Position numbers and translations under genes: made by a program. From a bacterium (GTDB lineage: Bacteria > Zhuqueibacterota > Zhuqueibacteria > Oceanimicrobiales > Oceanimicrobiaceae): a stretch of DNA of 64,000 nt. Shown here in pieces: positions 15,914 to 29,600 of this stretch (position 1 is the stretch's first letter; every line of letters begins with the position of its first letter). The notes beneath the pieces are model-generated. The model saw nothing but the letters and a program-made list of their open reading frames with translations, did not search any database and was not told where the DNA came from. The stretch lies in assembly GCA_046757025.1 (NCBI GenBank), contig JBHHXN010000006.1, positions 1-64,000 on the forward strand, read 5' to 3'.

Positions 15914-17503
15914 GTGAAAGTTTTTGAACTTTTCATGAGCAAAGGCAATACCATGAAGATTAAAAACCGAGTCATTGGTGGAAATGCGTTCGTTATTGGA
16001 AGCTTGTTGGCGATTTTTGTACTTGGCAGGCATTCAACTGTCCTGGGGCAACAAAGCAGCGAAAAAATACGAATAGCGGTGGCACGATTCTCCCATGAAA
16101 CCTGCACCTTTTGCCCGAAACCCACAACCGTTGCCGATTGGGAATATTACGGCCCTCCAACTCGCGAGATACTCAATTCCAATCGCGGATACATCGGCGG
16201 CTTCAAATCATTTTGTGATGAGATGGGCGGAGTGGAGCTGGTGCCCATCCTTTCGCCACGTGGTGCCAGAGGCGGCTCTTCTGGAAGCTGGATAACAAAA
16301 AAGGCGTTTGACAAATATACGGGCTTGATCGCAGAAGATATCCAGGCAGCGGGTGAGCTCGATGGCGTGTTTCTATCCTTGCACGGTGCCATGGCCGTCA
16401 CCGACGTTCCAAAGCCGGAAGCCGAAATCGTACGCCGGGTGCGCAAAGTGGTGGGAGATATTCCCATCATGATAACACTGGATTTACACGCAAATGAAGA
16501 CCACGAGCTTTCCGATGCCGCCGATGCGGTATTTATTGTGAAACGCTACCCGCACTACGACGCCACGTTACAGGGGGAGCGGGCGGCCCGGGTCATGCTC
16601 AAAACCATCCGCGGCACGTACAAACCGGTGATGGCCACTCGCAAGCCAGGAGTGATTACCCCCAGTGTGTTTCAGGGCACCGGTGTGTCCCCGGCCATGG
16701 ATATCATGGAACGGGCGCGCCGATGGGAATGCCGGGAGAGAGATGTGTACGTTTCGGTCGCTTTCGGATTTGCCTACGCCGATGTGCCGGAAGTCGGGGC
16801 CACGGTCATGGTGGTGGCCAACGACTCGCTGAAGCTGGCGGAAAAAATTGCCGACGACATGTCAGACTACATCTGGCGGATGCGCAAGGAGTTTGCCGGC
16901 AAAAAACTGCCCAAACCCCGAGAGGGTGTGGCACGAGCGCTGAGTGCGGTAAAAGCGGGTCGAGCGCCAGTGGTCATCGCCGATCACAGCGATCGCACCG
17001 GCGGCTCTACGCATATTTTGCAGGAGCTCATCCAGCAAGGGGCCAGGAATTTTTGCATCGCCACTTTGCGTGATGAAAAAGCCATCGAAAAATTGCAAGC
17101 CACCGCAAAAGTGGGTCACAAGGTCAGCCTTGCACTCGGTGGCTATTCGGATAAATTTGCTGGAAATCCAGTGCAGGTTGAAGGTACCCTGACCTATCTT
17201 GGACAATACGGCCGGGATGCCACGGCCGTACTCAAGATTGGTGAAAATAATTATGTCATTCTAACCGAGCATTTGCGGCAGGTTACCGACACCAACATTT
17301 TTGCACCTTTAGGCATTGATTTCGAAAAACTGGAATTGATCGTACTGAAATCGCGTGTGCATTTTCGCCGAGGATATCATGAAACCGGCATCGCCGGAGC
17401 CATTATAGAAATTGACGCACCTGGATGGGGTCCAGCCGATCTGACTACTCTGCCTTTTAAAAATATTCCAAAAGATATTTATCCGGTTTACGTTACAAAA
17501 TAG
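15914..17503 (+). CDS. M81 family metallopeptidase (MlrC-like), exported
   Basis: HETCTF, LSLHGAM, LDLHAN, RYPHYD, ADHSDRTGG, LKSRVHFR; N-terminal hydrophobic signal. Confidence 0.9.
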   Translation: MKVFELFMSKGNTMKIKNRVIGGNAFVIGSLLAIFVLGRHSTVLGQQSSEKIRIAVARFSHETCTFCPKPTTVADWEYYGPPTREILNSNRGYIGGFKSFCDEMGGVELVPILSPRGARGGSSGSWITKKAFDKYTGLIAEDIQAAGELDGVFLSLHGAMAVTDVPKPEAEIVRRVRKVVGDIPIMITLDLHANEDHELSDAADAVFIVKRYPHYDATLQGERAARVMLKTIRGTYKPVMATRKPGVITPSVFQGTGVSPAMDIMERARRWECRERDVYVSVAFGFAYADVPEVGATVMVVANDSLKLAEKIADDMSDYIWRMRKEFAGKKLPKPREGVARALSAVKAGRAPVVIADHSDRTGGSTHILQELIQQGARNFCIATLRDEKAIEKLQATAKVGHKVSLALGGYSDKFAGNPVQVEGTLTYLGQYGRDATAVLKIGENNYVILTEHLRQVTDTNIFAPLGIDFEKLELIVLKSRVHFRRGYHETGIAGAIIEIDAPGWGPADLTTLPFKNIPKDIYPVYVTK

Positions 17504-18262: not shown

Positions 18263-18667
18263 ATGCAAAAACATTTTAAAAGAGACCTCAAATCACTGGA
18301 AAAGATCTTTACCTTCATCGATGCTTTTTGTGATCAGAATCAGATCGACGAATCGGTTTCGTTTACGCTCAAATTAGTCGTTGAAGAGTTGTTCACAAAT
18401 ATGGTTAAATACAATGACGTGAGTCAACATGCCATACTATTAGAACTCAGCAAGCAAGACCAAAATCTGATTATCCGATTAACCGATCCGGATGCGGAGG
18501 CATTTGACATCACCAAAACAAAAGATGTGAAAGTAGATAAGCACCTGCAAGATCGAAAAGTGGGCGGGCTGGGAATTCATTTAGTAAAAAAATTTGTGGA
18601 TCAGATTGATTACGAATATGAAAATCGAAAAAGCCAAATTACGTTAACCAAACATCTGGAGAAATAA
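18263..18667 (+). CDS. RsbW/SpoIIAB-like anti-sigma Ser kinase (HATPase_c-like)
   Basis: N-box VVEELFTNMVKY, G-box GGLGIHLVKKFVD. Confidence 0.9.
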   Translation: MQKHFKRDLKSLEKIFTFIDAFCDQNQIDESVSFTLKLVVEELFTNMVKYNDVSQHAILLELSKQDQNLIIRLTDPDAEAFDITKTKDVKVDKHLQDRKVGGLGIHLVKKFVDQIDYEYENRKSQITLTKHLEK

Positions 18668-18668
18668 A

Positions 18669-18953
18669 ATGTTCGACATTAAAATTGCTGAAAATGGTGA
18701 TATTTCCCTGTCGGGCCGATGGGACGCTTCGCAAGTTGAAAAGGCGCAAGTTGTTTTCGATACCATTGAAAAATCCACCACCGTCAATTTTAAGGATTTG
18801 GAATACATTTCCAGTGCGGGCTTGAGCGTGTTGCTGGGAACCCAAAAACGATTGAGTGAAATCGATGCCAGCCTGAAATTGATCAATTTGAACAAATATG
18901 TTGGAGATGTTTTCCGCTACGCCGGTTTTGATGCCGTCTTTGATATTTCTTAA
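18669..18953 (+). CDS. STAS-domain anti-anti-sigma factor (RsbV/SpoIIAA-like)
   Basis: LSGRWDAS and phosphoacceptor motif LEYISSAGL. Confidence 0.9.
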   Translation: MFDIKIAENGDISLSGRWDASQVEKAQVVFDTIEKSTTVNFKDLEYISSAGLSVLLGTQKRLSEIDASLKLINLNKYVGDVFRYAGFDAVFDIS

Positions 18954-18968
18954 TAACCTAAATTTTGT

Positions 18969-18997
18969 TTGACATTAGAGCTTGCTGTACTTATATT
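18969..18997 (+). promoter_or_regulatory. Putative sigma70-type promoter about 390 nt upstream of the ECF sigma gene
   Basis: TTGACA-17 nt-TATATT. Confidence 0.5.
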
Positions 18998-19387
18998 GTG
19001 TCAAATGTTTAACAAAACAAGCGCCCTACTCTTGTTTAACACTTTGTTGTTTGAATTTCAAATACTCTGGGGTGTATTTTAAACGGTAGGTTGGTTCCAT
19101 TGTATTCTTATTTCCTTTCTAAATTGATATCAAATCTTATTCCTGAAACCTGTTTCGCAAATTCATGTGGATTGATGATTTTTCAGGTCTGTTAAAATTG
19201 TCATCAATTTAATAAATTCAACATTTCCTGAAATGTACGAGTAAACATTTGCATCCAATTGTGCATGCTGTGTTTAAAATAGCATTTATCATGAAGCAAG
19301 CATGGACTATTGGGGAATGGGTTGTAGTCTTTTTATTTAAAAACTATCGCAATTATTTACCAACTTTTAAAAAGATAAATTGTAATT

Positions 19388-19945
19388 ATGATTGAACCAT
19401 CAGATAATGACTTGGTGAAAGTGTGTTTGAAGGGTAAAATAGCGGCGTTCGAAACGTTGATCGAACGCTATCAAAAACCCATCTTCAATTTGGCATTTAG
19501 GATGCTCAATGATTACGAGGATGCACAGGATGTCGCACAAACTGTTTTTGTGAAAGCCTTTGAAAAACTGGCTACGTTTAACTTCCGTTTCAAATTTTTT
19601 AGTTGGATTTACCGAATCGCAGTAAATGAATCACTCAATGTTATTAATCAGAGACAGCAAATCGAACAGTTAGATCACAATCTCAATCTCATTTCTGAAG
19701 AAAAATCACCTGCAGAGCATTATCAAAATCGCGAATTAAATCGAAAAATTCAAATGGCTCTAATGAATCTTAAAATCGATTACCGTGCGGTTATTGTGCT
19801 CAGATATTTTGAAGAATTCTCCTATAATGAAATGAGCTATATCCTTGAGATTCCTGAAAAGACGGTGAAGTCTCGTTTGTTCTCAGCGAGGCAGCAATTA
19901 CGAAAGATTTTATTACTGAAAGGGTATATTGAAAATGATGGATGA
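19388..19945 (+). CDS. ECF RNA polymerase sigma factor
   Basis: Region 2 DAQDVAQTVFVKAF...FFSWIYRIAVN; region 4 SYNEMSYILEIPEKTVKSRLFSAR. Confidence 0.95.
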   Translation: MIEPSDNDLVKVCLKGKIAAFETLIERYQKPIFNLAFRMLNDYEDAQDVAQTVFVKAFEKLATFNFRFKFFSWIYRIAVNESLNVINQRQQIEQLDHNLNLISEEKSPAEHYQNRELNRKIQMALMNLKIDYRAVIVLRYFEEFSYNEMSYILEIPEKTVKSRLFSARQQLRKILLLKGYIENDG

Positions 19946-20711
19946 GAAACAGATTGCGCTAATCAATAAAGCCATGGATGGAGAAATCTCTGAAGATGAA
20001 CAAGCGGAAGTTGAAGAGTTATTGTCCAAAAACGAGGAAGCCAGAACTTATCATGATGAGCTGCAAAAACTAAAATCGATGTTTGATGAGGTGGCGGCGG
20101 TCGAACCGCCCGCCGATCTGAAAAAGAATATCTTAAATATCATCCCGACTCATAAATATCAACAAACGCCGCAGAAAGGATTGTTCAGATCTTTTTTTGA
20201 AAACTTTAGATTCGATTTTAATTTCAACTATGTTTATGCTTTTGCTTTTGGCCTGGTGTCCGGTATTTTTATCTTTACTTTTTCCAACAACGTCATTCCG
20301 CCGAGTACTCGCGACATAAGTGGTGCCCTGATTGGCGAAAACGCAATGGAAAAATTCAGCACTCTTGAACAGCAGAAATTCAAAGTTGCTGAATTAACCG
20401 GTACCGTTGAATTAAAGTGGCATCAGAATGTATGTTTGCTTGCAATTGAGCTGAGCTCGAAAACGGCTGTCGATTTGGTTGTGAATTTTGATGACCTCCT
20501 TGTTCGCTTCCTGGGATTCCTTCCTCAAAAAATCGAAAAAATGGATTTAGGCGTAACAGAAAATACAGTAAACCTTTCGCATGGCGGAGCTTTGCGATAT
20601 GCTTTGTTGTTTGAAGTTCGGAACGAGCCAGAATCTTTGTTCGAATTAACGATTCTCTCTGCTGAAGGGGAAGTGCTATTTATAAAGGAATATTCATCGC
20701 CCGAAAAGTAA
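19929..20711 (+). CDS. Putative membrane anti-sigma factor
   Basis: Overlaps sigma stop; degenerate anti-sigma domain (KAMDGEIS...ARTYHDEL) lacking the zinc-binding cysteines; one TM (YVYAFAFGLVSGIFIFTF); extracytoplasmic C-terminal domain. Confidence 0.75.
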   Translation: MKMMDEKQIALINKAMDGEISEDEQAEVEELLSKNEEARTYHDELQKLKSMFDEVAAVEPPADLKKNILNIIPTHKYQQTPQKGLFRSFFENFRFDFNFNYVYAFAFGLVSGIFIFTFSNNVIPPSTRDISGALIGENAMEKFSTLEQQKFKVAELTGTVELKWHQNVCLLAIELSSKTAVDLVVNFDDLLVRFLGFLPQKIEKMDLGVTENTVNLSHGGALRYALLFEVRNEPESLFELTILSAEGEVLFIKEYSSPEK

Positions 20712-20722
20712 TTTCTGTCAAT

Positions 20723-20844
20723 TTGAGACTGTTCAATAATTAGGTTTTGCCAACACAGACATACAATATATAGACATAGTATCCACGACACATGCAATAT
20801 ATCGTATCCGTTTTCAGGAATTTTGAATTATTGAACAGTCTCAA
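20723..20844. mobile_element. MITE-like element with perfect 19-bp terminal inverted repeat
   Basis: TTGAGACTGTTCAATAATT (20723-20741) / AATTATTGAACAGTCTCAA (20826-20844). Confidence 0.6.
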
Positions 20845-20955
20845 TTTATGTCTTTTTAATGAAACAATCCCAACCTGTTTCACTCAAGATGGTATTTCGA
20901 GTAAGCAGTGTTAAAAAAATATTAAAACCAATATTCATAATTAATGGAGGTAACT

Positions 20956-21933
20956 ATGACTGACCAAAGGCGCTCGGTATTAAGTACCGGTTTAGGCAAA
21001 TTGTTAATGGGCGTGGCAGCATTAATCGTGGTGGTGGTAGTTTATTTCGCATTTTTTGAACCGTGGCCGGGCGGTGAAGACCTGTCTGGCACCATCGGCG
21101 GCGTTCAAAAAGCCAAAAAAGAGATCGCTGAACAGATCAGCGATGAGGATGTCACAATTCAGGATGCGGAAATTCAAAGCGTCGTGCAGAGCGAGGTGTT
21201 TCAAAAATTGATCACCGACAGCGATTTCCAGCATATTTTGGCTCGCGAAGATTTTCAGATGATGTTAGCCCGAGAGGACTTCCAGAACTTGCTGGCGCGG
21301 GAAGATTTTCAGCTCATGTTAGCCCGGGATGATTTCCAGCATCTGCTGGCTCGCGAAGATTTCCAAAATCTCCTGAATCGGGAAGATTTTCAACTGATGA
21401 TGGCTCGGGAAGATTTCCAGCATCTGCTGGCTCGGGATGATTTCCGCAATCTATTAGCCCGGGAAGATTTTCAGCTCATGCTGGAACGAGAAGACTTTCG
21501 CAACATGCTGGCACGTGAAGATTTTCAGAAAGTCATGGCCAGAGAAGATTTCAGGAAAGTCATGGAACGCGAAGACTTTCAAAATTTGCTGGCCAGAGAA
21601 GATTTTCAACATTTATTGGCCCGGGAAGATTTCCAGAATATGTTGGCACGAGAGGATTTTAGGCACCTGTTGGCGAGAGAGGATTTTCGCCATCTTTTGG
21701 CCCGGGAAGATTTTCGCATGATGCTGGCCCGCGAGGACTTTCAGCATTTACTGGCACGGGAAGATTTTCGGCACTTGCTGGCGCGAGAGGATTTTCAACA
21801 CCTTCTGGCCCGGGAAGATTTTCGCTTAATGATGGCACGGGAAGATTTTCAAAAAGTCATGGCGCGTGAGGATTTTCAACGTATGCTTGAAAGAGAAGAT
21901 TTTCAAAAAATTGCCACATCGGATGTGAAGTAA
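20956..21933 (+). CDS. Membrane-anchored tandem-repeat protein with 25 copies of a 9-aa (Q/R)xxxAREDF-type unit
   Basis: GGAGG RBS 5 nt before ATG 20956; N-terminal TM LLMGVAALIVVVVVYFAFF; repeats at 21229-21903. Confidence 0.9.
   Translation: MTDQRRSVLSTGLGKLLMGVAALIVVVVVYFAFFEPWPGGEDLSGTIGGVQKAKKEIAEQISDEDVTIQDAEIQSVVQSEVFQKLITDSDFQHILAREDFQMMLAREDFQNLLAREDFQLMLARDDFQHLLAREDFQNLLNREDFQLMMAREDFQHLLARDDFRNLLAREDFQLMLEREDFRNMLAREDFQKVMAREDFRKVMEREDFQNLLAREDFQHLLAREDFQNMLAREDFRHLLAREDFRHLLAREDFRMMLAREDFQHLLAREDFRHLLAREDFQHLLAREDFRLMMAREDFQKVMAREDFQRMLEREDFQKIATSDVK
21229..21903 (+). repeat. 27-bp coding tandem repeat x25, synonymously diverged
   Basis: Recurring CGNGA(A/G/T)GA(T/C)TT(T/C)-like unit every 27 nt, with codon usage varying between copies. 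Confidence 0.95.
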
Positions 21934-22009
21934 CGAGCAAAGAAATGCTCATTTTTACGGGCGAAAAGCCCTCCTATCATTAATTGTTTTAATCCAAGCT
22001 AAAACAGAC

Positions 22010-22051
22010 GGAGATGTTGTAGCCTCTCTATGGCATCTCCTTCTTATTTTT
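22010..22051 (+). terminator. Putative intrinsic terminator or attenuating hairpin after the repeat-protein gene
   Basis: GGAGATGTTGTAG / CTATGGCATCTCC stem (with G-U pairs) followed by TTCTTATTTTT. Confidence 0.55.
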
Positions 22052-22193
22052 AAATAAAGGGATAGCTGAAAATTGAGTATCTTTCCTGAGATGCGTGCTC
22101 TCTTTTTAGGATTCCTTGCCGGTGAAACCACCTTCCGGTTTGAATTGAAAATTAGTAAACATTCTGTACTTGAATAAATCACAAAAAAAGACT

Positions 22194-25139
22194 ATGAGAA
22201 AGGTTGTAACTGTAAGCGGGTTATTATGGTATTGGCTGTTTATCGTTTCATCTTTATTCGGCCAAATAAACACTTTAGAAACCGAAAATTTACGACTGAT
22301 TTATTTTAGTAAGATTCATTCGTTTCTGGTACCGCATGTGGCGCGTTGCTTTGAAAATTCCTTGAAATTTCATCGTGAACTTTTTGATTACACTCCTTCC
22401 GAAAAAATCACGGTGATGCTGCATGATTTTAATGATTTCGGCAATGCCGGCGCCGATGCCGTCCCCCGAAACAATATCGTCGTCGGCATCGCCCCATATC
22501 GCTATGTTTACGAAACTTCGCCCGCGAATGAGCGAATGAATTCCACCATGAATCACGAGCTGGCACACGTGGTGGCTATGGATAAAGCCAACAGCGTGGA
22601 TGGCTTTTTTCGAAAAGTGTTCTGGGGTAAAGTTGCCATCACACCCGATAATCCCATTTCCATGTTTTACAGTTTCTTAACCACGCCCCGTAGATATTCA
22701 CCGCGCTGGTATCACGAAGGCCTGGCGGTTTTTCTGGAAACATGGATGGCCGGAGGCCTGGGTAGAGCGCTTGGAGCGTACGACGAAATGGTTTTCAGGA
22801 CACTTGTAAGAGACCAGGGACGCATTTATGATCTGGTAGGGCTGGAATCGGAAGGAGTGAAAATCGATTTTCAGGTTGGCGTTAATTCCTACCTCTATGG
22901 CACTCGTTTTATGAGCTACCTTGCCTATGAATTCGGTCCGAAAAGTTTGATCCAGTGGGCTGCACGTACTAACGGCAGCCGGGGATATTTTGCTTCGCAA
23001 TTTAAAAAAACGTACGGCCTGTCCCTGAATGACGCCTGGGCGCAGTGGATTCGATGGGAAAACCAGTTTCAGCAATCCAACTTAAAAGCGATTCGAACGA
23101 ATCCTACTACGCCGATTCGGGAGATCTTAAATCAAGCCCTGGGCTCGGTCTCGCAAGCTTTTTATGACTCATCAACAGCGAAGGTTTACACGGCCATGCG
23201 CTATCCGGGTCAAATTGCGTCGATTGTGGAAATTGATTTTACCAGCGGCCGGACGCAGAAAATATGCGACATCAAGGGCCCCGCTCTGTATTATGTGGCT
23301 TCGCTTACTTATGACCCGCAGAACGCCACCATTTTTTATACCACTGACAACAACGATTGGCGGGACCTGCGCTCGATGAATGTCAAGACCCATCGCGGGA
23401 AAACGCTGCTTAAAGATGTACGAACCGGCGATATAGTATTCAATCAGGCTGATGGCTCCATCTGGGGAGTACGGCATTATAATGGCCTGTCAACCATCGT
23501 GCGCATTCCACATCCGTACAAAGAGTGGAATCAAATCTATTCCTGGCCTTACGGTCAGGATGTTTACGACCTCGCTATCAGTCCGGATGGCAAACTTTTA
23601 ACCGTCTCTTTGATTGACGTAAGTGGAAAGCAGAAGTTGATCCTCCTGGAAATTTCGAAATTGATGAGTGGAGACGCCTCGTTTAAGGTGCTGTTTGATT
23701 TTGAACATAATTCACCGGAGAATTTTGTTTTTTCACCAAACGGTAAATACCTTTACGGGACTTCCTATTATTCTGGCGTCTCAAATGTCTTTCGTTTTGA
23801 TTTGGCTGAAAATGACCTGTCCGTTATCAGCAATTGCGAAACCGGCTTTTTCCGGCCAGTGCCCGTTTCTCAGGATTCCCTTTTGGTTTTTCGGTACACC
23901 AGCAAAGGCTTTGTGCCGGTCATGATCGCCAGTACCCCCATCGAAAATGTTAGCGCCATCAAATTTTTGGGTCAGGAAACTATAGACAAACATCCCTTGG
24001 TTAAAAATTGGATGGCCGGAACGCCAACATCCGTGAATATCGATTCCCTGACAATCTATTCAGGCGCTTATCACGGCCTCGCGAATATTGGACTGGCCTC
24101 GGCTTATCCCGTGGTGGAGGGCTATAAAGATTTCGCTGCTTTAGGAATGCGGTTCAATTTTTCCGGTCCAGTGGGGTTGCATAATTTAGCACTCACCGCT
24201 TCTTATTCCATTGATAATGATTCACCGGATGATGAAAAACTTCATTTGCAGCTCAGTTACGATTATTTAAATTGGGAGATTTCAGCAAGATACAACGCTT
24301 CAAATTTTTACGATTTGTTTGGGCCCACCAAATCCAGCCGCAAAGGTTATTCTTTGAGTTTGCGCTACAAAAAATCGCTGTTGTACGACGGGCCTAAGCG
24401 TATGGGTTACACCGTTCATCTGGCCGGATTTGGGAATTTAGAAACCCTTCCCGATTTTCAAAACATCAGCGCGCCGTTCGATAAATTTTTAACTTTCAAT
24501 GTGAATTATTACTACCAGGATATCCGCAAATCACTTGGCGCGGTTGACGATGAGAAGGGTTTTAAGTGGCAAATCGTCGCCAACAACAATTACGTGAACA
24601 AAAAGCTGTTTCCACGGGCTTTTACCACTTTAGATTTGGGAGTGCCACTACCTTTTGGGCACTCCTCCATCTGGCTTCGAAGCGCAGTGGGGCAGTCGGC
24701 CAGCAAGCGCAGTGACCGTCTGGTGCAATTTGGACAGTTTTTCTTCGGCGGTTTTGGCAATAATTGGGTGGACCATCTTGGCGAGAAAAGATATCGCGAA
24801 CATTACAGCTTTCCCGGACTCGAGCTCAATGAGGTAGGAGGGACCAATTTTGGTAAATTCATGTTGGAATGGAATCTGCCGCCGTTGAGATTTCGACGGG
24901 TGGGTTCGCCCTCGCTATATGCTACCTGGCTGCGTACCACGCTATTCGCCTCCGGCCTGACCACTAATTTCGATGACAAAAGCGTTCGGCGCGAGCTTTT
25001 TAATTTTGGTGGACAAATCGATGTGCGATTCAGCATGCTGTCACATTTGAAAGCGACTTTGTCGTTCGGCTACGCAGCCGCAATTGAACGACATCAGGAT
25101 GTTTCCAAAGAATTTATGGTCTCCTTGAAAATATTGTAA
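22194..25139 (+). CDS. Exported protein: gluzincin-like metallopeptidase domain + TolB/PD40-like beta-propeller + probable outer-membrane beta-barrel
   Basis: Signal peptide; NHELAH (HExxH) then PRWYHEGLA; propeller repeats LAISPDGK, FVFSPNGK; C-terminal alternating aromatic beta-strands; start at MRKVV inferred. Confidence 0.75.
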   Translation: MRKVVTVSGLLWYWLFIVSSLFGQINTLETENLRLIYFSKIHSFLVPHVARCFENSLKFHRELFDYTPSEKITVMLHDFNDFGNAGADAVPRNNIVVGIAPYRYVYETSPANERMNSTMNHELAHVVAMDKANSVDGFFRKVFWGKVAITPDNPISMFYSFLTTPRRYSPRWYHEGLAVFLETWMAGGLGRALGAYDEMVFRTLVRDQGRIYDLVGLESEGVKIDFQVGVNSYLYGTRFMSYLAYEFGPKSLIQWAARTNGSRGYFASQFKKTYGLSLNDAWAQWIRWENQFQQSNLKAIRTNPTTPIREILNQALGSVSQAFYDSSTAKVYTAMRYPGQIASIVEIDFTSGRTQKICDIKGPALYYVASLTYDPQNATIFYTTDNNDWRDLRSMNVKTHRGKTLLKDVRTGDIVFNQADGSIWGVRHYNGLSTIVRIPHPYKEWNQIYSWPYGQDVYDLAISPDGKLLTVSLIDVSGKQKLILLEISKLMSGDASFKVLFDFEHNSPENFVFSPNGKYLYGTSYYSGVSNVFRFDLAENDLSVISNCETGFFRPVPVSQDSLLVFRYTSKGFVPVMIASTPIENVSAIKFLGQETIDKHPLVKNWMAGTPTSVNIDSLTIYSGAYHGLANIGLASAYPVVEGYKDFAALGMRFNFSGPVGLHNLALTASYSIDNDSPDDEKLHLQLSYDYLNWEISARYNASNFYDLFGPTKSSRKGYSLSLRYKKSLLYDGPKRMGYTVHLAGFGNLETLPDFQNISAPFDKFLTFNVNYYYQDIRKSLGAVDDEKGFKWQIVANNNYVNKKLFPRAFTTLDLGVPLPFGHSSIWLRSAVGQSASKRSDRLVQFGQFFFGGFGNNWVDHLGEKRYREHYSFPGLELNEVGGTNFGKFMLEWNLPPLRFRRVGSPSLYATWLRTTLFASGLTTNFDDKSVRRELFNFGGQIDVRFSMLSHLKATLSFGYAAAIERHQDVSKEFMVSLKIL

Positions 25140-25153
25140 GAAGTGCCCCAAAG

Positions 25154-26158
25154 ATGACCGAATTTATGCGCATGGTTGTCAGCATCCTGCCGGTGTTTTT
25201 GTTTCTGGCGGCGCTGATCGTGTTCGACAGCTACAAACTTGTAAAATTGCAAACCGTGGTACTGACCATTCTGATAGGGTGTTTAGCCGCATTGATTTGT
25301 TTTTTAGTAAACAATCAATTGTACTCACAATTGGAGGTCGATTTCAAAACATTCATTCGATATGTTTCGCCGTTCACTGAGGAAAGTGTGAAATCGATTT
25401 ACATCATCTATTTGCTGAGAAAGCATAAAGTGGGTTTTCTGGTGGATTCAGCTATCTACGGTTTCGCTATCGGTACAGGTTTTGCTTTCATCGAAAACGT
25501 ATTTTATTTACATTCGGTACAAAATTCAAATTTTCTGATCTGGGTGGTACGCGGTTTCGGCACCGCCGTGATGCATGGAACGGCAACGGCATTTTTGGCG
25601 GTGTTTTCAAAAAGTTTGTCTGATTGGAACCAATCCGTAAAGTGGTTTCTGTTATTGCCCGGACTGCTGGCTGCGGTGTTCACGCATTCATTTTACAATC
25701 ACTTTTTTTTGCCACCGGCGGTCATCACGCTGGCCTTTGTTGTCTTGTTACCAATGGTTTTTGTGGCGCTCTTTGAAAGGAGTGAAAAGATAACTCGCAA
25801 GTGGTTGGGAGTGGGATTTGACACCGATGTGGAATTGCTTGAAATGATCGTTTCGGGTAAAATATCAGAAACCCGCATCGGCAAATACCTGGACAGTTTG
25901 AAAAACCACTTTCCCGGAGAAGTTGTTGCCGACTTGTTTTGTCTGCTGAGAATAAACTTGGAACTGGCTATTCGTGCAAAAGGCATTTTGCTGATGCGAC
26001 AATCGGGGTTTAAAGCCGCAGCGGCTCCTGACATAAAACAAAAATTGGAAGAATTACAGTACCTTGAAAAAAGTATAGGCAGAACCGGCAAACTCGCCAT
26101 CCTGCCGTTTTTACATACCAGTCATCGCGATCTCTGGCAGTTGTACATGGTCAAATAA
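25154..26158 (+). CDS. prsW: PrsW family intramembrane metalloprotease
   Basis: Multi-TM; PFTEESVK (EExxK), GFAFIENVFY (FxxxE), VMHGT, HSFYNH (HxxxN). Confidence 0.85.
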   Translation: MTEFMRMVVSILPVFLFLAALIVFDSYKLVKLQTVVLTILIGCLAALICFLVNNQLYSQLEVDFKTFIRYVSPFTEESVKSIYIIYLLRKHKVGFLVDSAIYGFAIGTGFAFIENVFYLHSVQNSNFLIWVVRGFGTAVMHGTATAFLAVFSKSLSDWNQSVKWFLLLPGLLAAVFTHSFYNHFFLPPAVITLAFVVLLPMVFVALFERSEKITRKWLGVGFDTDVELLEMIVSGKISETRIGKYLDSLKNHFPGEVVADLFCLLRINLELAIRAKGILLMRQSGFKAAAAPDIKQKLEELQYLEKSIGRTGKLAILPFLHTSHRDLWQLYMVK

Positions 26159-26299
26159 TCGTTGACAATATAGAGAAATATTCATAATTTTTTAACACCT
26201 CAACTGAGCGATTCATCATCGGGGGATTAGGGTGTTCAAGTTTTGCTTGAGGGAAGATATCAGACCACATTTTTTTCATTTTTAAAATGAGAGGAAACT

Positions 26300-27643
26300 T
26301 TGTTTACTTCGTCATCTGATCAGAAAGACCTGGCGGATAATGGCTTGACTACAGATGTTAAAAACATCATAGCAAAAAAAGACGATGAGATACAAAAACT
26401 TAAATCTGCGGTTGAAGAGTTAAGCGTATTAAACGATTTAGCTATTGATGCCAGCCTCTCCTTGGAAGTGGATCAGATGCTGGACATCATCGTGGAAAAA
26501 TCCATCAAGGCTGTGAAAGCAGAACAGGGCTCCATTTTGCTGGTTACGGAACAGGCTGATTCGCCATTAAAAACGCTCATTCGGCAGGCAGATGCAAGGA
26601 GCCGATTGCTCACTTACCGGGTGGGTACGCACATCACCGGCTGGGTGCTCAAAAATCAAAAACCGCTGATGATTGAAGATCTGGCAAACGACGACCGATT
26701 CCGGCCCACGGAGCAGGAAAGCAAAGAAATCCGTTCTGTTCTGTGTGTCCCCATCCGCTTAAAAGCCAAAATCATCGGTATTCTCATGGTGACCAACAAA
26801 AAGACCATGCAACCGTTTAGCGAAAGCGATTTGCGGCTGCTCTCCATCATCGCAGCGCAATCCGGCCAGCTCATTCGCAATTCACAACTGCAGCAGGAAG
26901 CCCTGGAAAAGAAACGATTGCAAGACGAATTAGCGGTGGCGCGCAAAATTCAACTTAGCTTACTGCCGAAAACCAGCCCGGAGATTGAGAATTTTGAAAT
27001 TGCCAATTACTTTAATCCGGCTACCGAGGTAGGCGGCGACTATTTCGACTATTTTCAGTTCGATGATTCACAATTTGGTCTTGTGCTGGCGGACGTCTCC
27101 GGACATGGGCCGTCTGCTGCCCTAGTGATGACGTTGGTTAAAGGTATTTTACACGCCATCACCCACAAATTCAGCTCTCCCGATACCTTGTTGGCGGAAA
27201 TGAATAAAATTCTCAGCGAGGTCATTCCCAAAGAGGTGTTTGTGACAATGGTGTTTTTAGTATTTGATCTGAAAGAAAACACACTGCGATTTTCCAATGC
27301 CGGGCATAATCCTATATTACACTATTCTCTCGATGGTAAGTCCTGTGGTAAAATAGAGCTCAAGGGCCCCGCACTCGGATTAACCAGTTTATCCGTGTAT
27401 CAGCAAATGGATATCCCCCTGTTTTCCGGGGACGTTATTTTAATTTACACCGACGGCGTGACCGAAGCTTTCAATCAAAAAGGTGACATGTTCGAAGAAG
27501 AGCGACTGCGGCAGGCTTTAAAACAGACCGCGTCGTACGACGCCCGCGCCATCATCGAAAATCTGCGAATGGCGCTTTATACATTTAAAGACGGCGCTCC
27601 GCAGGCTGATGACGAAGCCATGATCGCCGTAAAAATCAAGTAA
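26300..27643 (+). CDS. GAF + SpoIIE/PP2C phosphatase (RsbU-like)
   Basis: TTG start behind GAGAGG; GAF (SVLCVPI...NKK...FSESDLRLL); VGGDYFD, ADVSGHG, YTDGVTEA, QADDEA. Confidence 0.92.
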   Translation: MFTSSSDQKDLADNGLTTDVKNIIAKKDDEIQKLKSAVEELSVLNDLAIDASLSLEVDQMLDIIVEKSIKAVKAEQGSILLVTEQADSPLKTLIRQADARSRLLTYRVGTHITGWVLKNQKPLMIEDLANDDRFRPTEQESKEIRSVLCVPIRLKAKIIGILMVTNKKTMQPFSESDLRLLSIIAAQSGQLIRNSQLQQEALEKKRLQDELAVARKIQLSLLPKTSPEIENFEIANYFNPATEVGGDYFDYFQFDDSQFGLVLADVSGHGPSAALVMTLVKGILHAITHKFSSPDTLLAEMNKILSEVIPKEVFVTMVFLVFDLKENTLRFSNAGHNPILHYSLDGKSCGKIELKGPALGLTSLSVYQQMDIPLFSGDVILIYTDGVTEAFNQKGDMFEEERLRQALKQTASYDARAIIENLRMALYTFKDGAPQADDEAMIAVKIK

Positions 27644-28029
27644 TATCAAATCAGTTTGATTTTTTAGTGTTAGAACGAAAGTCCGTTTTTGTCATTCTAC
27701 AGAAAATACAACTACCGATTTATTCTCAAAGTTGTAAACAGATTATGCAAATCAAATAATTGTGAGCTATTTTTAAAAGAACATCCCAGAGTACAGATTA
27801 GGACCGATCTTATGAAATATTCTCAAAAAAAATTCAATGAAAACAGTCTATGCTTGCTTTTTTGCGAATTTGGTTTTCTCACTTCAAGCATATTCTAGTG
27901 ATTTGTCTTCTGCTGGGTAGGCACTACTGACTTTGAAGAGCGGTCAGAGGTTATAATGAAAAATTGGTGGCATGTCTTTTAAATATAAAATACAATGTAA
28001 AATTCTGTAAAAGAAGGTGTTCTACCTTT

Positions 28030-28186
28030 AGAGGCTGTGTGAAAACACGCAAACTACGCGTCTGTCATTCTGCAGGCATCTTTTTTGTTTTGACGTAAAG
28101 TGCTGTTTATTAAAAAGATTTATCCAGAATGACATTGACGGTGAAATTGGTTATAAGTTGACATTTCGATTTTTCACACAGCCTCT
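28030..28186. mobile_element. MITE-like element, family B copy 2
   Basis: Perfect 16-bp TIR AGAGGCTGTGTGAAAA / TTTTCACACAGCCTCT; internal GTCATTCTG...CAGAATGAC palindrome. Confidence 0.7.
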
Positions 28187-28283
28187 TTAGGCGGCAGCAG
28201 GCCGAAGCTTGATCAACTCTCCACAAGTTCATTTTGCAGATGTCTAAAAAAAGCAATTATCATCGATAAAAGGAGCGTTTCCT

Positions 28284-29600
28284 TTGATAGAAATCAAAAA
28301 TTCAAAAAACCATGAAATAGCCAAGCTTACCGACGAAAACAACCGGCTAAAGAAATCCATTGAAGACCTGAAAATTATCAATGAACTGGCAAAAATTATC
28401 AGCTCAACCATTCCCGTGGAGCAGATTTTAAATAAAGTCACCACCGTGTCGGTTAGAGCCATTGGCGCGGAGCAGGGTACCATTTCATTGTTGAATGAAC
28501 AGGAAGAAGAGGATGAATTCAAAACGTTGATTCGAAAGGTCGATGCCTCAAAAGTGACCAACAAATATCGACTGGATGATGATTTGAGCGGCTGGATGAT
28601 TAAATATCGTAAACCGTTGATGATCACTAACTTTAATCAGGACCGTACCTTCAAAAGGCAATACGAAAATTCGGAGAAAATTCGCTCAATATTGAGTGTA
28701 CCGTTGGTATGCAAAGGCAAACTCATCGGCGTTTTGAATCTATTCAATAAAAAACAGGATGGCCAGTTTACGCTTGATGATCAACGCCTGTTATCCATCA
28801 TTGCATCGCAGTCGGCACAGGTGATTGAAAATGCCCGGTTATATGAAGAAGAGGAGCAGCTGCGTCTCATTGAGCAAGAGCTGAAAACGGCCCATGCCAT
28901 TCAGGTGGGACTGCTGCCGAAAGAGAGTCCGCGAATTAGCGGATTTGATGTGGCCGGCCGAAGTTATCCGGCCACAGAGGTAGGCGGCGACTATTTTGAT
29001 TTTATTGAACTGGATGACCACCTCTGGGGCATTGCGTTGGGCGATGTTTCGGGCAAAGGCATTCCGGCCGCGTTGCTGATGTCCAATTTACAGGCTACGC
29101 TGCGGAATCAGGCCTTGCACAACGCTTCTCTGGTTGAATGCATAGAAAAGGCTAATCAATTTTTGTGTTACAACACTGAATCCACCAAATTCGTCACGCT
29201 TTTTTGTGGAAAACTAAATTCAGAAAAGCGAACTTTTCAATTTGTCAATGCTGGACACAATTTTCCATTTTACCTTAACACCAAAGGGGAATTTGAAACG
29301 TTGGAAATCGGCGGGGTGGTACTCGGCATGATTCCCGAGTTTACCTTTGATCAAGGCGAGGTGCATTTGCAGCCTGGAGAAATTATTGTGGTTTATTCCG
29401 ACGGAGTGACCGAAGCAGAAAACGAACTAGAGGAATTGCTCGGTGAGGAACGGTTAAAAAACATTATTTTGGATAATCGTCATTTAAGTGCTCAGGAACT
29501 GGTTGAAATTATTTATCAAAAAGTGAAAGAATTTAGCGGTGCGGCGAAACAGGACGATGACATCACCATCGTCGTATTGAAAGCAGAAAACGCTCATTAA
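28284..29600 (+). CDS. GAF + SpoIIE/PP2C phosphatase (RsbU-like), second paralog
   Basis: TTG start behind AAGGAG; SILSVPL...NKK; VGGDYFD, GDVSGKG, YSDGVTEA, QDDDIT. Confidence 0.92.
   Translation: MIEIKNSKNHEIAKLTDENNRLKKSIEDLKIINELAKIISSTIPVEQILNKVTTVSVRAIGAEQGTISLLNEQEEEDEFKTLIRKVDASKVTNKYRLDDDLSGWMIKYRKPLMITNFNQDRTFKRQYENSEKIRSILSVPLVCKGKLIGVLNLFNKKQDGQFTLDDQRLLSIIASQSAQVIENARLYEEEEQLRLIEQELKTAHAIQVGLLPKESPRISGFDVAGRSYPATEVGGDYFDFIELDDHLWGIALGDVSGKGIPAALLMSNLQATLRNQALHNASLVECIEKANQFLCYNTESTKFVTLFCGKLNSEKRTFQFVNAGHNFPFYLNTKGEFETLEIGGVVLGMIPEFTFDQGEVHLQPGEIIVVYSDGVTEAENELEELLGEERLKNIILDNRHLSAQELVEIIYQKVKEFSGAAKQDDDITIVVLKAENAH

Follow-up and report, generated by a model that had tools for sequence, protein, structure and literature searches.

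A membrane-anchored nonapeptide-repeat protein as a possible extracytoplasmic arm of a protease-linked sigma factor switch

Main finding

We analysed a 64,000-nucleotide stretch of bacterial DNA (hereafter the window) that encodes a single-pass membrane protein with 25 tandem nonapeptides. Its gene lies near an ECF sigma factor gene, in the order ECF sigma factor, anti-sigma factor, repeat protein, 989-aa HExxH peptidase and PrsW. Based on gene context and sequence, our preferred reading, which we hold at about even confidence, is that a sigma switch based on regulated proteolysis uses the repeat protein as its extracytoplasmic arm, either as sensor or as substrate. Because the family sits beside two proteases and is often fused to an anti-sigma domain, it looks like part of a stress-signalling switch and not like a peptide factory.

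Few signalling devices are more common in bacteria than ECF sigma factors, and to our knowledge, for most of these factors neither the signal nor the anti-sigma factor's way of sensing it is known. The five-gene module, which occurs in uncultured lineages of several phyla, offers a way to test how proteolysis could follow from a signal in the envelope. Its wiring differs by lineage, with an ECF sigma factor, a fused anti-sigma factor, or a ToxR-like regulator. Here, we describe the repeat protein and its relatives, and then use the module's gene order and putative promoters to weigh what the protein may do.

The repeat protein and its 25-unit array

The gene and the segments of its product are laid out as follows, with residue numbers referring to the 329-aa version of the protein.

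20956..21933, + strand: repeat protein gene, 325 aa from the likely start; alternative ATG at 20944
20946..20950, + strand: Shine-Dalgarno GGAGG, read from the sequence, 5 nt ahead of the ATG at 20956
20998..21057, + strand: signal-anchor or transmembrane (TM) segment KLLMGVAALIVVVVVYFAFF, residues 19-38, preceded by basic residues (N-in)
21085..21228, + strand: conserved juxtamembrane linker (SGTIGGVQKAKK...DV.I...IQ..VQ...FQ.LI), two degenerate units included
21229..21903, + strand: 25 tandem nonapeptides, consensus Q-H/N-L/M-L-A-R-E-D-F, residues 96-320, in register

With the upstream ATG included, the open reading frame spans 20944..21933 (+) and encodes 329 aa. Since the Shine-Dalgarno sequence is placed for the second ATG, the start is most likely 20956, where the original prediction had put it. 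In orthologs, the GGAGGT before the Met likewise reads 'EV[VT]M'. The N-terminus is a basic tail of about 15 residues ahead of the membrane segment, and the AlphaFold2 model has a helix at residues 17-37, at the TM position. The linker contains GTIGGVQKAKK, and the two degenerate units ahead of the array are QSVVQSEVF and QKLITDSDF. The layout first described for this protein, a single TM followed by a linker, two degenerate units and 25 uninterrupted 9-residue units, holds throughout the sequence. The repeat protein is a type-II (N-in) single-pass protein, and its outer part consists of a conserved juxtamembrane handle and, after it, a row of amphipathic two-turn helices.

Within the array, R6, D8 and F9 are each present in 25/25 units, as had been claimed, followed by E7 (23/25), A5 (21/25) and L4 (20/25). 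No unit contains Gly, and the units (QxLLAREDF) do not conform to the RTX consensus GGxGxDxUx. Tandem Repeats Finder detected repeats (scores 104-297) at periods of 27, 54, 81 and 108 nt, and the periodicity is far beyond chance. The copies also differ in their codons, in agreement with the original prediction: five different Arg codons are in use, same-residue positions in unit pairs have unlike codons in 992 of 1850 codon pairs (54%), and mean nucleotide identity among units is 68%.

The longest exact repeat within the array is only 23 nt, which makes assembly collapse unlikely. On the possibility of an assembly artefact, raised at the outset, Logan contigs from four runs of one study cover this stretch, and two of the four runs (possible sources of this DNA) carry it in one unbroken piece. 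A third sample has an in-frame 27-nt deletion at 21811, and hence one unit fewer. Separately, contigs from the fourth run (X4) are broken up inside the array.

Predicted structure of the array

AlphaFold2 modeled the repeat protein as an extended run of mini-helices, with one 7-residue helix per nonapeptide and 2-residue breaks every 9 residues (array pLDDT 75-88). In 43 related arrays, an N-cap residue (S/T/D/N) occupies one fixed unit position in 76%, and Pro occurs only at the position after the N-cap (16% there, 0% elsewhere), a pattern that agrees with the predicted 7-residue helices. The template derived from these 43 arrays is [S/N/D]-[P/x]-[A/E]-hydrophobic-[R/Q]-x-[A/hydrophobic]-hydrophobic-x. 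The window unit REDFQHLLA fits template positions 4-9, with Arg in place of the usual S/N/D. In 99/127 arrays, a set biased by the query's own repeats, the best lag is a multiple of 9, as it is in 18/24 loci retrieved by the linker alone. The array sequence changes freely from species to species and is made uniform within each, yet a helix cap recurs every nine residues. Provided that the model is right, the array unit is among the shortest helical repeat units known to us.

The original prediction had offered two alternatives, a peptide precursor or a short-helix solenoid or fibre exported through the adjacent barrel. From the second of these, the short-helix solenoid is supported by the AlphaFold2 model and the N-cap pattern; the exported fibre is not.

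Foldseek with the repeat model returned nothing at E<=1e-3 (best E 0.029, TM<=0.38), the best hit of a VIA wide search had a Z of 6.7 and was to designed repeats, and a sequence search of the PDB found no match; none of these results makes the fold a new one. No STI1 or Hop structure is among the Foldseek and VIA rows, and the array may still adopt that fold. Any resemblance to the model in either search is confined to de novo designed helical repeat proteins, which consist of 2-helix units of about 40-50 residues. The scores lie in a range common for helical models and so establish no fold relationship.

Relatives and conservation of the linker

An exhaustive HMMER search with the repeat protein yielded 956 relatives at E<=1e-3, including 260 at <=1e-10. 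A word-indexed protein search with the whole protein found nothing at E<=1e-3, and the same kind of search with a linker profile gave four matches with uninformative names. No model in Pfam or NCBIfam covers the family or gives a confident match to the repeat protein, so the check for an already characterised family came back empty, and the literature that we searched for the family or for such repeats contained no description of it and nothing relevant. The main text of an ECF classification (PMC7826278) does not mention PrsW, TolB, WD40 or these phyla. In part of its supplement, PrsW is given only for Firmicutes groups and the ECF21-ECF27 part is without such a module; the remaining supplement could hold a group matching the module.

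A comparison of homologs based on the linker, as initially proposed, showed that the TM and linker are shared and that the unit sequence differs among orthologs. Among the best 150 of the 956 relatives, 107 match the TM + linker (residues 15-95) at E<=1e-3. In an alignment of the window protein with 15 relatives, G39, T40, Q54 and Q72 are invariant. The family linker, G-T-I-G-(G-V)-x-K-A-x-K-Y...Q...D-V-x-L...I-Q..L-Q.D.F-Q.L, is present in the window protein, which reads KKEIAEQ where relatives usually have KYRAEQ. Orthologs at the same locus carry other units (LLRNAEFQS, AFLANDQMR, ALANPELRS, the 11-mer KLEPAALQAVS, and an 18-mer), and many relatives have degenerate arrays with lag-9 identities of 0.12-0.25. 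Conservation in the family is highest in the juxtamembrane linker and not in the array. The outer part, counted from GTIGG to the C-terminus, measures 172-675 residues (n=23, median 351), and a conserved C-terminal docking domain of the repeat protein is absent outside Acidobacteriota.

Several matches were set aside. Giant eukaryote-like proteins among the HMMER top matches (e.g., 4738, 564 and 1013 aa) match only through the periodic array and lack the linker. For the window protein, the Pfam match to YfeC-like (22.9 bits, no passing stretch) and the NCBIfam match to TcpK (25.7 bits vs. a cut-off of 45) were judged to be repeat or composition artefacts, and we judged the relatives' matches to Plasmodium_HRP, DTP-pb9, RPN13_C, Ribos_L4_asso_C, ZNHIT3_C and others in the same way.

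The conserved module

The genes and elements around the repeat gene are listed below.

18263..18667, + strand: RsbW-like HATPase_c_2 gene (Pfam HATPase_c_2, 5.2e-18)
18669..18953, + strand: STAS gene (Pfam STAS_2, 4.4e-08)
19388..19945, + strand: ECF sigma factor, 185 aa (Pfam Sigma70_r2, 2.9e-14; Sigma70_r4_2, 1.8e-13)
19929..20711, + strand: single-pass anti-sigma factor, 260 aa (NCBIfam 'antisigma', 3.3e-05)
20720..20847, no strand assigned: element with a 22-nt inverted repeat at its ends, between the anti-sigma and repeat genes
22010..22050, + strand: terminator-like hairpin (13-bp stem + T-rich tail) from a consensus scan, between the repeat and peptidase genes
22170..25139, + strand: 989-aa secreted peptidase-propeller-barrel protein (AlphaFold2 pLDDT 73.9)
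25154..26158, + strand: PrsW-family intramembrane protease (Pfam PrsW-protease, 1.2e-20)
26300..27643, + strand: GAF-SpoIIE (PP2C) phosphatase (Pfam SpoIIE, 2.3e-47; GAF, 2.1e-17)
28284..29600, + strand: second GAF-SpoIIE (PP2C) phosphatase (NCBIfam matches)

The best NCBIfam models for the ECF sigma factor are SigW and RpoE types, all under their equivalog cut-offs. In the anti-sigma factor, an N-terminal anti-sigma domain is followed by a TM and by a beta-rich outer domain of its own. The HATPase_c_2 and STAS genes, of the partner-switching type, lie directly upstream of the sigma gene. The arms of the inverted-repeat element are 95% complementary, its fold z-score is -4.3, and a second copy with 88% identity occurs on another contig of the same genome; Rfam had no match on 18900-26400, this element included. 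Hairpins of the kind found at 22010..22050 were not more numerous in the region than the shuffled expectation.

A peptidase ortholog lies immediately downstream of the repeat gene in all 22 loci having downstream sequence, and PrsW is within the locus in 19 of these 22. In four further Gemmatimonadota loci (4/4), the repeat gene is directly upstream of the peptidase. Of 12 genomes with a close peptidase ortholog, 11 have the linker, against none of 28 genomes without one. The loci are labelled as KSB1, Bacteroidota/Ignavibacteria/Chlorobi-type, Calditrichaceae, Acidobacteriota and Gemmatimonadaceae, and judging by these assignments the module is kept across at least five phylum-level groups.

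In some lineages, the repeat protein is itself part of the anti-sigma factor. Among the best 150 relatives, 21 start with a domain that matches the N-domain of the window's anti-sigma factor (E 1.5e-10 to 3e-4). In the Gemmatimonadota loci (5/5), which lack a separate anti-sigma gene, the sigma factor is followed by a fusion of anti-sigma domain + TM + linker + 9-mers, and then by the peptidase, PrsW and PP2C. The window repeat protein has no cytoplasmic anti-sigma domain; the separate upstream gene holds it. In Acidobacteriota, a sigma or anti-sigma gene was not found within 7 kb in 8/9 loci, and the three loci examined in detail have a Trans_reg_C+TPR regulator instead of the sigma factor. 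This indicates that the core trio does not need an adjacent sigma factor.

Two candidate proteases

The 989-aa protein has an N-terminal helix (signal peptide or anchor), an HExxH peptidase at about residues 33-310, a TolB-like beta-propeller at 326-587 and a C-terminal beta-barrel at 630-988, with long strands in the AlphaFold2 model. H129, E130 and H133 of the HExxH motif are invariant in 22/22 orthologs, and the propeller matches TolB (Foldseek, E 1.2e-09). Pfam matches among the 22 orthologs are all weak: PD40 in 18, Omp85_2 in 10 (best E 0.005) and Peptidase_MA_2 in 7. The initial description of this neighbour as a metallopeptidase with a barrel was broadly right, and the propeller can now be added.

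PrsW carries the EExxK, H and HxxxN motifs, with E76, E77, K80, H141, H178 and N182 invariant in 20/20 orthologs, and has a conserved cytoplasmic tail of roughly 130 aa. Judged from their sequences, both the 989-aa peptidase and PrsW look active.

A predicted complex of PrsW with the TM/linker scored 0.36, and the best of three controls scored 0.15. In these runs, at least 82% of contacts agree and partner pLDDT is at least 57. Of 157 solved complexes, 116 reached the mark for a complex, as did 2 of 215 mismatched pairs; those that passed with a score of 0.60 or lower comprise only 18 of the 157 and both mismatches. The prediction weakly suggests that PrsW may bind the TM + linker, given that passes this low are wrong in more cases than not, except where the pairing is likely beforehand.

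Putative sigma-dependent promoter motifs

Two similar motifs precede the sigma and repeat genes.

19360..19386, + strand: putative promoter motif P1 (CCAACTTTT-N12-TGTAAT), abutting the sigma start codon
20870..20896, + strand: putative promoter motif P2 (CCAACCTGTTTCACTCAAGATGGTATT), upstream of the repeat gene

Their shared pattern is CCAAC-N15-17-[TGA]GTA. P1 is at the same place in 12/14 related loci holding the sigma gene, and P2 in 10/14 related loci with a separate anti-sigma gene. Several orthologous loci have a STAS-like C-terminus that ends directly ahead of the sigma promoter motif. We infer that P1 acts as a promoter. The pattern is not enriched across the window (4 matches vs. 4.7 in shuffles), so its weight comes from positional conservation only.

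Proposed role in envelope signalling

The functional steps of the model draw on gene order, fusions and motifs, from which each was inferred. The helix array would be the exposed sensor part, either protease-sensitive or ligand-binding, and the propeller-gated metallopeptidase would process it. PrsW may recognise or cut the juxtamembrane handle in a site-1-type cleavage. In the fused lineages, degradation of the arm would free the sigma factor directly. In this genome, where the arm is a separate gene, it could act as a co-sensor or competing substrate beside the anti-sigma factor, and the sigma factor itself would switch on the repeat gene via the second copy of its promoter motif.

The arm may, in this genome, be only an output of the regulon, since its cytoplasmic tail has about 15 residues and a complete anti-sigma factor with its own outer domain is encoded upstream. 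A bolder version of the proposal, which we consider unlikely, is that the array is a new architecture: an alpha-solenoid rod with one two-turn helix per nine residues, tethered to the inner membrane and marginally stable, meltable or client-binding. As a physical sensor, its unfolding or occupancy would be read by the propeller-gated outer-membrane metallopeptidase and PrsW, and its destruction would activate the ECF sigma factor (FCB-group, Gemmatimonadota) or the ToxR-like regulator (Acidobacteriota). If true, such a rod would be a principle of trans-envelope signalling not described before, in at least five phyla.

Alternative explanations

The strongest competitor, which we regard as possible and still well short of probable, places the protein outside signalling as an effector of the regulon. 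It would be an abundant, membrane-tethered periplasmic protein, induced by the sigma factor, whose amphipathic mini-helices take up exposed hydrophobic segments like a holdase or sponge, as STI1/DP domains do, or serve the envelope as scaffold or spacer, with the peptidase and PrsW as co-induced quality control. A highly expressed first gene would fit with the repeat gene's own copy of the sigma-type motif and the strong terminator-like hairpin after it, and the persistence of the trio in Acidobacteriota without an adjacent sigma factor also favours an effector, whereas the fused anti-sigma forms show that the module can itself be the sensing part of a switch. The conservation of the linker over the array is likewise easier to reconcile with a handle for a membrane partner than with client binding.

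The link to STI1 is itself two-sided. STI1-HOP_DP is the Pfam family with the largest number of matching members (17/108 at E<=0.01), orthologs with NPELRxALA units reach 45-61 bits vs. the STI1-HOP_DP cut-off of 29.1, and in the nearest Atlas clusters, which we treat as leads only, STI1-HOP_DP occurs in 23-25% of members and UBQLN1 in 33%. However, the STI1 scores are sums of sub-threshold partial matches in which no single stretch passes, the matches cover only profile positions 2-31 of 55, and the window protein has no STI1 match at E<=0.01. The hydrophobic groove of STI1 domains binds hydrophobic sequences, according to parts of PMC11257586 and PMC8010706.

It is quite improbable, in our view, that the solenoid is a ruler or tether that spans the periplasm from the inner membrane to the outer-membrane peptidase and reports envelope geometry. 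This would make sense of the inner-membrane anchor, the strict co-occurrence with the partner, and the partner's C-terminal beta-barrel and TolB-like propeller. Against it, the outer length varies about four-fold among relatives, from 172 to 675 residues, and unit number varies within the sampled population, where one variant is a unit shorter, both of which argue against a fixed-length role; docking domains at the C-terminus are, moreover, confined to Acidobacteriota.

The two roles suggested in the original prediction are the least probable, and we consider each very doubtful. In the first, the adjacent metallopeptidase would release a nonapeptide library from the protein as a multi-core precursor, as the 25 near-identical units adjoining two conserved proteases and the protein-level selection on R, D and F could suggest; the reading is not supported, because units differ among orthologs and many arrays are degenerate, which leaves no conserved peptide product, because there is no leader-type region and no radical-SAM, YcaO or lanthipeptide-like (maturase-type) family among the 9+6 neighbours scanned, and because the N-terminus is a membrane anchor that an anti-sigma domain precedes in many relatives, making the array the outer part of an anti-sigma factor there.

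In the second, a fibre or solenoid subunit would be exported by way of the adjacent barrel. Some Omp85-dependent export systems typically carry repetitive passengers, and the neighbour's C-terminal domain has weak Omp85-type matches (the 10/22 orthologs with Omp85_2, plus Atlas leads), but secretion is not borne out: the 20-residue hydrophobic stretch is a signal-anchor without an AxA-type site and no cleavable signal peptide is present, Pfam and NCBIfam detect no TPS-type or other secretion domain, and the fused relatives depend on the segment to cross the membrane.

Comparison with known systems

The proposed signalling arm is best set beside SigW/RsiW/PrsW of B. subtilis, in which PrsW performs site-1 cleavage of RsiW. 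As in that system, an ECF sigma factor, a single-pass anti-sigma factor and a motif-intact PrsW are encoded in one locus. Here, in contrast, the organism is of the diderm type, PrsW has a long cytoplasmic tail, and an outer-membrane HExxH peptidase carrying a propeller is the obligatory partner. RsiW has no counterpart to the nonapeptide array that forms the candidate substrate's outer domain, and in this genome a separate gene encodes that domain.

The B. subtilis sigM-yhdL-yhdK locus also combines a sigma factor, an anti-sigma factor and a further membrane protein, which together control the sigma factor (PMC6827917); there is no sequence relationship, YhdK is without a repeat array, and the locus is not described in the abstract of that paper as encoding protease partners. 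Similarly, FecA-FecR-FecI joins an outer-membrane barrel, an anti-sigma factor with a periplasmic arm and an ECF sigma factor (PMC5411451 and PMC2729926, in part). The outer-membrane partner in our module is a peptidase-propeller-barrel protein and not a TonB-dependent receptor, and Pfam finds no FecR-type domain.

The STI1/HOP DP and ubiquilin STI1 domains (PF17830, PF23195) share amphipathic helices that start with N-cap-Pro, [D/N]-P-x-h-x-x-h-h. The UBQLN1 model scores 30-41 bits vs. 27 on NPELRxALA-type orthologs, and three orthologous arrays lie above the whole-protein cut-off of STI1-HOP_DP with 0 passing stretches. DP domains are compact, with 5-6 helices in about 55-70 residues, and belong to cytosolic eukaryotic co-chaperones, whereas the present arrays have 25 or more units of identical length in a bacterial envelope protein. 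Lastly, RTX nonapeptides are also tandem 9-residue units of bacterial extracytoplasmic proteins (PMC6891781, in part), but they form a Gly/Asp-rich Ca-binding beta-roll, whereas the array described here is Ala/Leu/Arg/Glu-rich and predicted to be helical.

Repeat gene and neighboring genes

The repeat gene is an ORF of 329 residues on the + strand (20944..21933). A Shine-Dalgarno-like GGAGG (20946-20950) lies five bases 5' of its second ATG, and orthologs have a matching arrangement, read as 'EV[VT]M'. Thus, the start at 20956 (325 aa) given in the original prediction is probably right. The surrounding genes were assigned with Pfam and NCBIfam.

Parts of the repeat protein (329-aa numbering) and genes around it
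N-terminus: short basic tail
Residues 19-38: 20-residue hydrophobic segment (TM)
After the hydrophobic segment: acidic exit containing Pro/Gly
After the acidic exit: linker with GTIGGVQKAKK
Between linker and array: two degenerate units
Residues 96-320 (21229-21903, +): 25 nonapeptides in perfect register
C-terminus: 9-residue tail
18263-18667: RsbW-like HATPase_c_2
18669-18953: STAS
19388-19945: ECF sigma
19929-20711: anti-sigma
20956-21933 (+): repeat protein
22170-25139: 989-aa protein
25154-26158: PrsW
26300-27643: GAF-PP2C
28284-29600: second GAF-PP2C

The array is as first described, with 25 in-register units after two degenerate ones and R6, D8, and F9 invariant (25/25), followed by E7 (23/25), A5 (21/25), and L4 (20/25). 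Tandem Repeats Finder reports periods of 27, 54, 81, and 108 nt. Mean nucleotide identity between units is 68%, and 992 of 1850 same-residue codon pairs differ, so conservation acts at the protein level and the copies are old, in agreement with the protein-level selection originally proposed from codon differences. Four runs of a single hydrothermal vent metagenome study have Logan contigs covering the array. Two of these, possibly the source of the window's DNA, span the whole array in one piece; a third sample (run X3) has an in-frame 27-nt deletion at 21811, exactly one nonapeptide fewer. The longest exact repeat inside the array is 23 nt, so assembly collapse is unlikely. The contigs show that the array is real and that its copy number varies in nature. 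Run X4 carries clustered substitutions at 21417-21438.

The downstream 989-aa protein (hereafter, the peptidase) has an HExxH motif that is invariant in 22/22 orthologs. Its AlphaFold2 model (pLDDT 73.9) consists of an N-terminal helix, a peptidase-like domain, a beta-propeller that matches TolB (E 1.2e-09), and a long-strand C-terminal beta-barrel, consistent with the metallopeptidase and barrel originally placed next to the repeat gene. Pfam matches among the 22 orthologs are all weak (PD40 in 18, Omp85_2 in 10, Peptidase_MA_2 in 7), and Atlas leads agree with them. In PrsW, the residues EExxK, H, and HxxxN are kept in 20/20 orthologs. A conserved cytoplasmic C-terminal extension of ~130 residues (about 205-334) lies outside the PrsW Pfam model, with many positions invariant in the 20 orthologs (e.g. 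E211, R215, W217, D225, W328).

A family with a conserved linker and genome-specific repeats

Pfam and NCBIfam gave only artefactual sub-threshold matches to the repeat protein, and a word-indexed search gave no relatives. An exhaustive HMMER search against 1.84 billion cluster representatives yielded 956 relatives at E<=1e-3 (260 at <=1e-10); giant proteins among the top matches, aligned only over their periodic part, were set aside. Residues 15-95, which hold the TM and linker, are matched at E<=1e-3 by 107 of the best 150 among the 956. The core that they share has a hydrophobic segment and, after it, G-T-I-G-(G-V)-x-K-A-x-K-Y-x-x-x-Q...D-V-x-L...I-Q..L-Q.D.F-Q.L. The repeat protein belongs to a large unnamed family, and no Pfam or NCBIfam model covers it. 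We found no description of the family or module in a literature search, nor in the ECF reclassification paper together with part of its supplement. The family is present in 44/167 genomes of the window's phylum (a tally including two genomes flagged unpublished), and the gene is single-copy in the window's own genome.

Comparison of repeat sequences in homologs, as originally proposed, shows that the linker is kept and the repeat unit is genome-specific. Orthologs reached through the neighboring 989-aa gene have units such as LLRNAEFQS, DESFRNFLS, AFLANDQMR, SEAFRLALQ, ELMADARFQ, EALTSEAMR, and ALANPELRS, an 18-mer (LMAREDVRQALANRSFAT), an 11-mer (KLEPAALQAVS), and a 13-mer. The best lag is a multiple of 9 in 99/127 arrays, a set biased by the query's own repeats, and in 18/24 loci retrieved by linker alone; many arrays are degenerate (lag-9 identity 0.12-0.25). 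Acidobacterial members (L024-L034) share a C-terminal cap after the array, G-[AS]-L-Q-Q-A-L-A-S-Q-A-F-C/R-Q-A-L...A-F-N-R, which is absent from the window's group.

Predicted structure of the units

For a position-by-position profile, 43 clearly 9-periodic arrays were set in one register and pooled. Position 1 is S/T/D/N (76%), position 4 hydrophobic (88%), position 5 K/R/H (53%) or Q/N (25%), position 7 Ala (58%) or hydrophobic (34%), and position 8 hydrophobic (81%); all Pro falls at position 2 (16%, and 0.00 at every other position). An N-cap, then Pro/Glu, then hydrophobics at i, i+3, and i+4 is the signature of a fresh helix start in each unit. Independently of this pattern, a single-sequence AlphaFold2 model gives the same picture: helices of 7 residues (DFQxhLA) and, between them, breaks of 2 residues (RE), with pLDDT 75-88 in the array and an overall mean of 67.6.

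The array model resembles no solved natural structure: Foldseek returned nothing at E<=1e-3 (best rows designed repeats, TM<=0.38), the best VIA wide Z was 6.7, within the range that the tool calls common for helical models, and PDB searches by sequence returned none. By sequence pattern, the units come closest to STI1/HOP DP domains with their [D/N]-P helix-start motif, and no other Pfam family is matched by as many family members as STI1-HOP_DP (17/108). Orthologs with NPELRxALA units reach 45-61 bits (cut-off 29.1), but no single stretch passes, coverage is confined to the profile's first half, and the repeat protein of the window does not match at all; we read the likeness as resemblance rather than membership. 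Pfam, NCBIfam, and structure searches gave no confident match to a characterised repeat family; such a match was what the original prediction had named as counting against it.

Anti-sigma fusions and a conserved trio

The key clue is a set of anti-sigma fusions. Among the best 150 of the 956 relatives, 21 carry an N-terminal domain like that of the window's own anti-sigma (E 1.5e-10 to 3e-4), followed by TM, linker, and repeats. The family occurs in 5/101 Gemmatimonadota genomes searched, and 5/5 of these loci encode sigma, the fusion (anti-sigma domain, TM, linker, and 9-mers), peptidase, PrsW, and PP2C (L049-L052 among them), with no separate anti-sigma gene. The fusions show that the TM-linker-array module, or arm, can itself form the membrane and outer portion of an anti-sigma factor. 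The arm has a gene of its own in the window's lineage, where the anti-sigma comes with a separate TM and a beta-rich outer domain.

A linker-based scan, with one genome per species, yielded 25 loci labelled KSB1/Zhuqueibacter, Cytophagia/Bacteroidota, Ignavibacteriaceae, Chlorobiaceae, Calditrichaceae, Acidobacteriota, and Gemmatimonadaceae. A peptidase ortholog directly follows the repeat gene in all 22 loci with downstream sequence, and PrsW lies within 19 of these 22. The linker was found in 11/12 genomes with a close peptidase ortholog (the exception is 80% complete and holds only a fragment) and in 0/28 without one; several linker-scan loci are from genomes also in the 989-aa ortholog set, so the two sets are not independent. 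Non-acidobacterial loci have sigma and anti-sigma genes 5' of the repeat gene, whereas 8/9 acidobacterial loci have neither within 7 kb. In 3/3 acidobacterial loci analysed in detail (L024, L030, L032), a divergent gene for a Trans_reg_C+TPR (ToxR-like) regulator of roughly 700 aa lies upstream, and an RsbW-like gene adjoins PrsW in two (L030, L032). Because Gemmatimonadota, the window's lineage, and Acidobacteriota pair arm, peptidase, and PrsW with differing regulators, this trio is the invariant core, with regulators varying by lineage. RND efflux genes occur further upstream in 2/3 of these acidobacterial loci.

Partner-switching genes accompany the module in the window: RsbW-like HATPase_c_2 and STAS (18263-18953) and GAF-SpoIIE PP2C phosphatases (26300-29600). 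Their association with the module suggests that the same switch is also regulated in the cytoplasm.

Promoter-like motifs

The motif CCAACTTTT-N11-12-TGTA[AT]T occurs directly 5' of the sigma gene in the window (19360) and in 12/14 loci holding this gene. A second copy precedes the repeat gene in the window (20870, GGTATT) and in 10/14 loci with a separate anti-sigma. The pattern is not enriched across the window (4 vs 4.7 in shuffles); its weight lies in positional conservation. ECF sigma factors commonly autoregulate, and with the second copy in place we infer that the arm gene heads a second sigma-dependent unit. A terminator-like 13-bp hairpin (22010-22040) lies 3' of it. The first motif (19360-19390) ends two bases 5' of the sigma ATG, a spacing kept in orthologs, so either the sigma mRNA may be leaderless or nearly so, or the promoter geometry may be unusual.

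Possible roles of the repeat protein

We see about an even chance that the repeat protein serves a regulated-proteolysis switch as its extracytoplasmic arm. The juxtamembrane linker with GTIGG, which is conserved, would be a handle recognised or cut by membrane-embedded PrsW. The mini-helix array would be the exposed part, acting as sensor or substrate, and the propeller-gated peptidase would handle it. Loss of a fused arm would free the sigma factor; a split arm, as in the window, would act beside the anti-sigma and itself be induced. For PrsW and the TM plus linker, complex prediction scored a weak 0.36 (best of 3 controls, 0.15); at least 82% of contacts agreed between runs, and partner pLDDT was at least 57. 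The mark for such predictions is reached by 116/157 solved complexes and 2/215 mismatches; passes at 0.60 or under comprise only 18 of the 157 and both passing mismatches.

In the main rival, which we regard as possible though rather unlikely, the arm would be an induced effector: its STI1-like amphipathic helices would form a tethered holdase or sponge, or it would be a scaffold. A strict periplasmic ruler is improbable, given outer lengths of 172-675 residues and the one-unit deletion in another sample. Very improbable is the precursor of a nonapeptide library cut by the adjacent metallopeptidase, as originally suggested, because the unit is conserved nowhere across the family, no maturase was found among the neighboring proteins scanned, and the protein has a membrane anchor and anti-sigma fusions. 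The original alternative of a short-helix solenoid or fibre exported through the adjacent barrel survives in its short helix per unit (AlphaFold2, N-cap pattern), but an exported fibre is just as doubtful as the library because no secretion signal or secretion domain was found.

The signalling logic of the proposed proteolytic switch would be a variant of known ECF/anti-sigma/PrsW proteolysis and of trans-envelope signalling. What is new to it is the repeat domain and the peptidase partner.

Other elements near the module

A distant paralog of the 989-aa protein, about 1000-1050 aa long with about 20-23% identity, is also present in most genomes of the class. It comes without a repeat gene and may be a housekeeping relative. 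Upstream of the module is an M81/MlrC-type metallopeptidase gene (15914-17503; DUF1485 7.7e-71, MlrC_C 1.2e-28) whose product has an N-terminal hydrophobic segment. A 128-nt element (20720-20847) lies between the anti-sigma and repeat genes, just upstream of the second promoter-like motif. It had no match in Rfam, may be a small mobile or structured element, and is bounded by a 22-nt inverted repeat (arms 95% complementary) with an RNA fold z-score of -4.3. Contigs of three runs share the arms and differ in the letters between, and a second copy (88% identity) lies on another contig of the window's genome (G000:C1:134057-134174).
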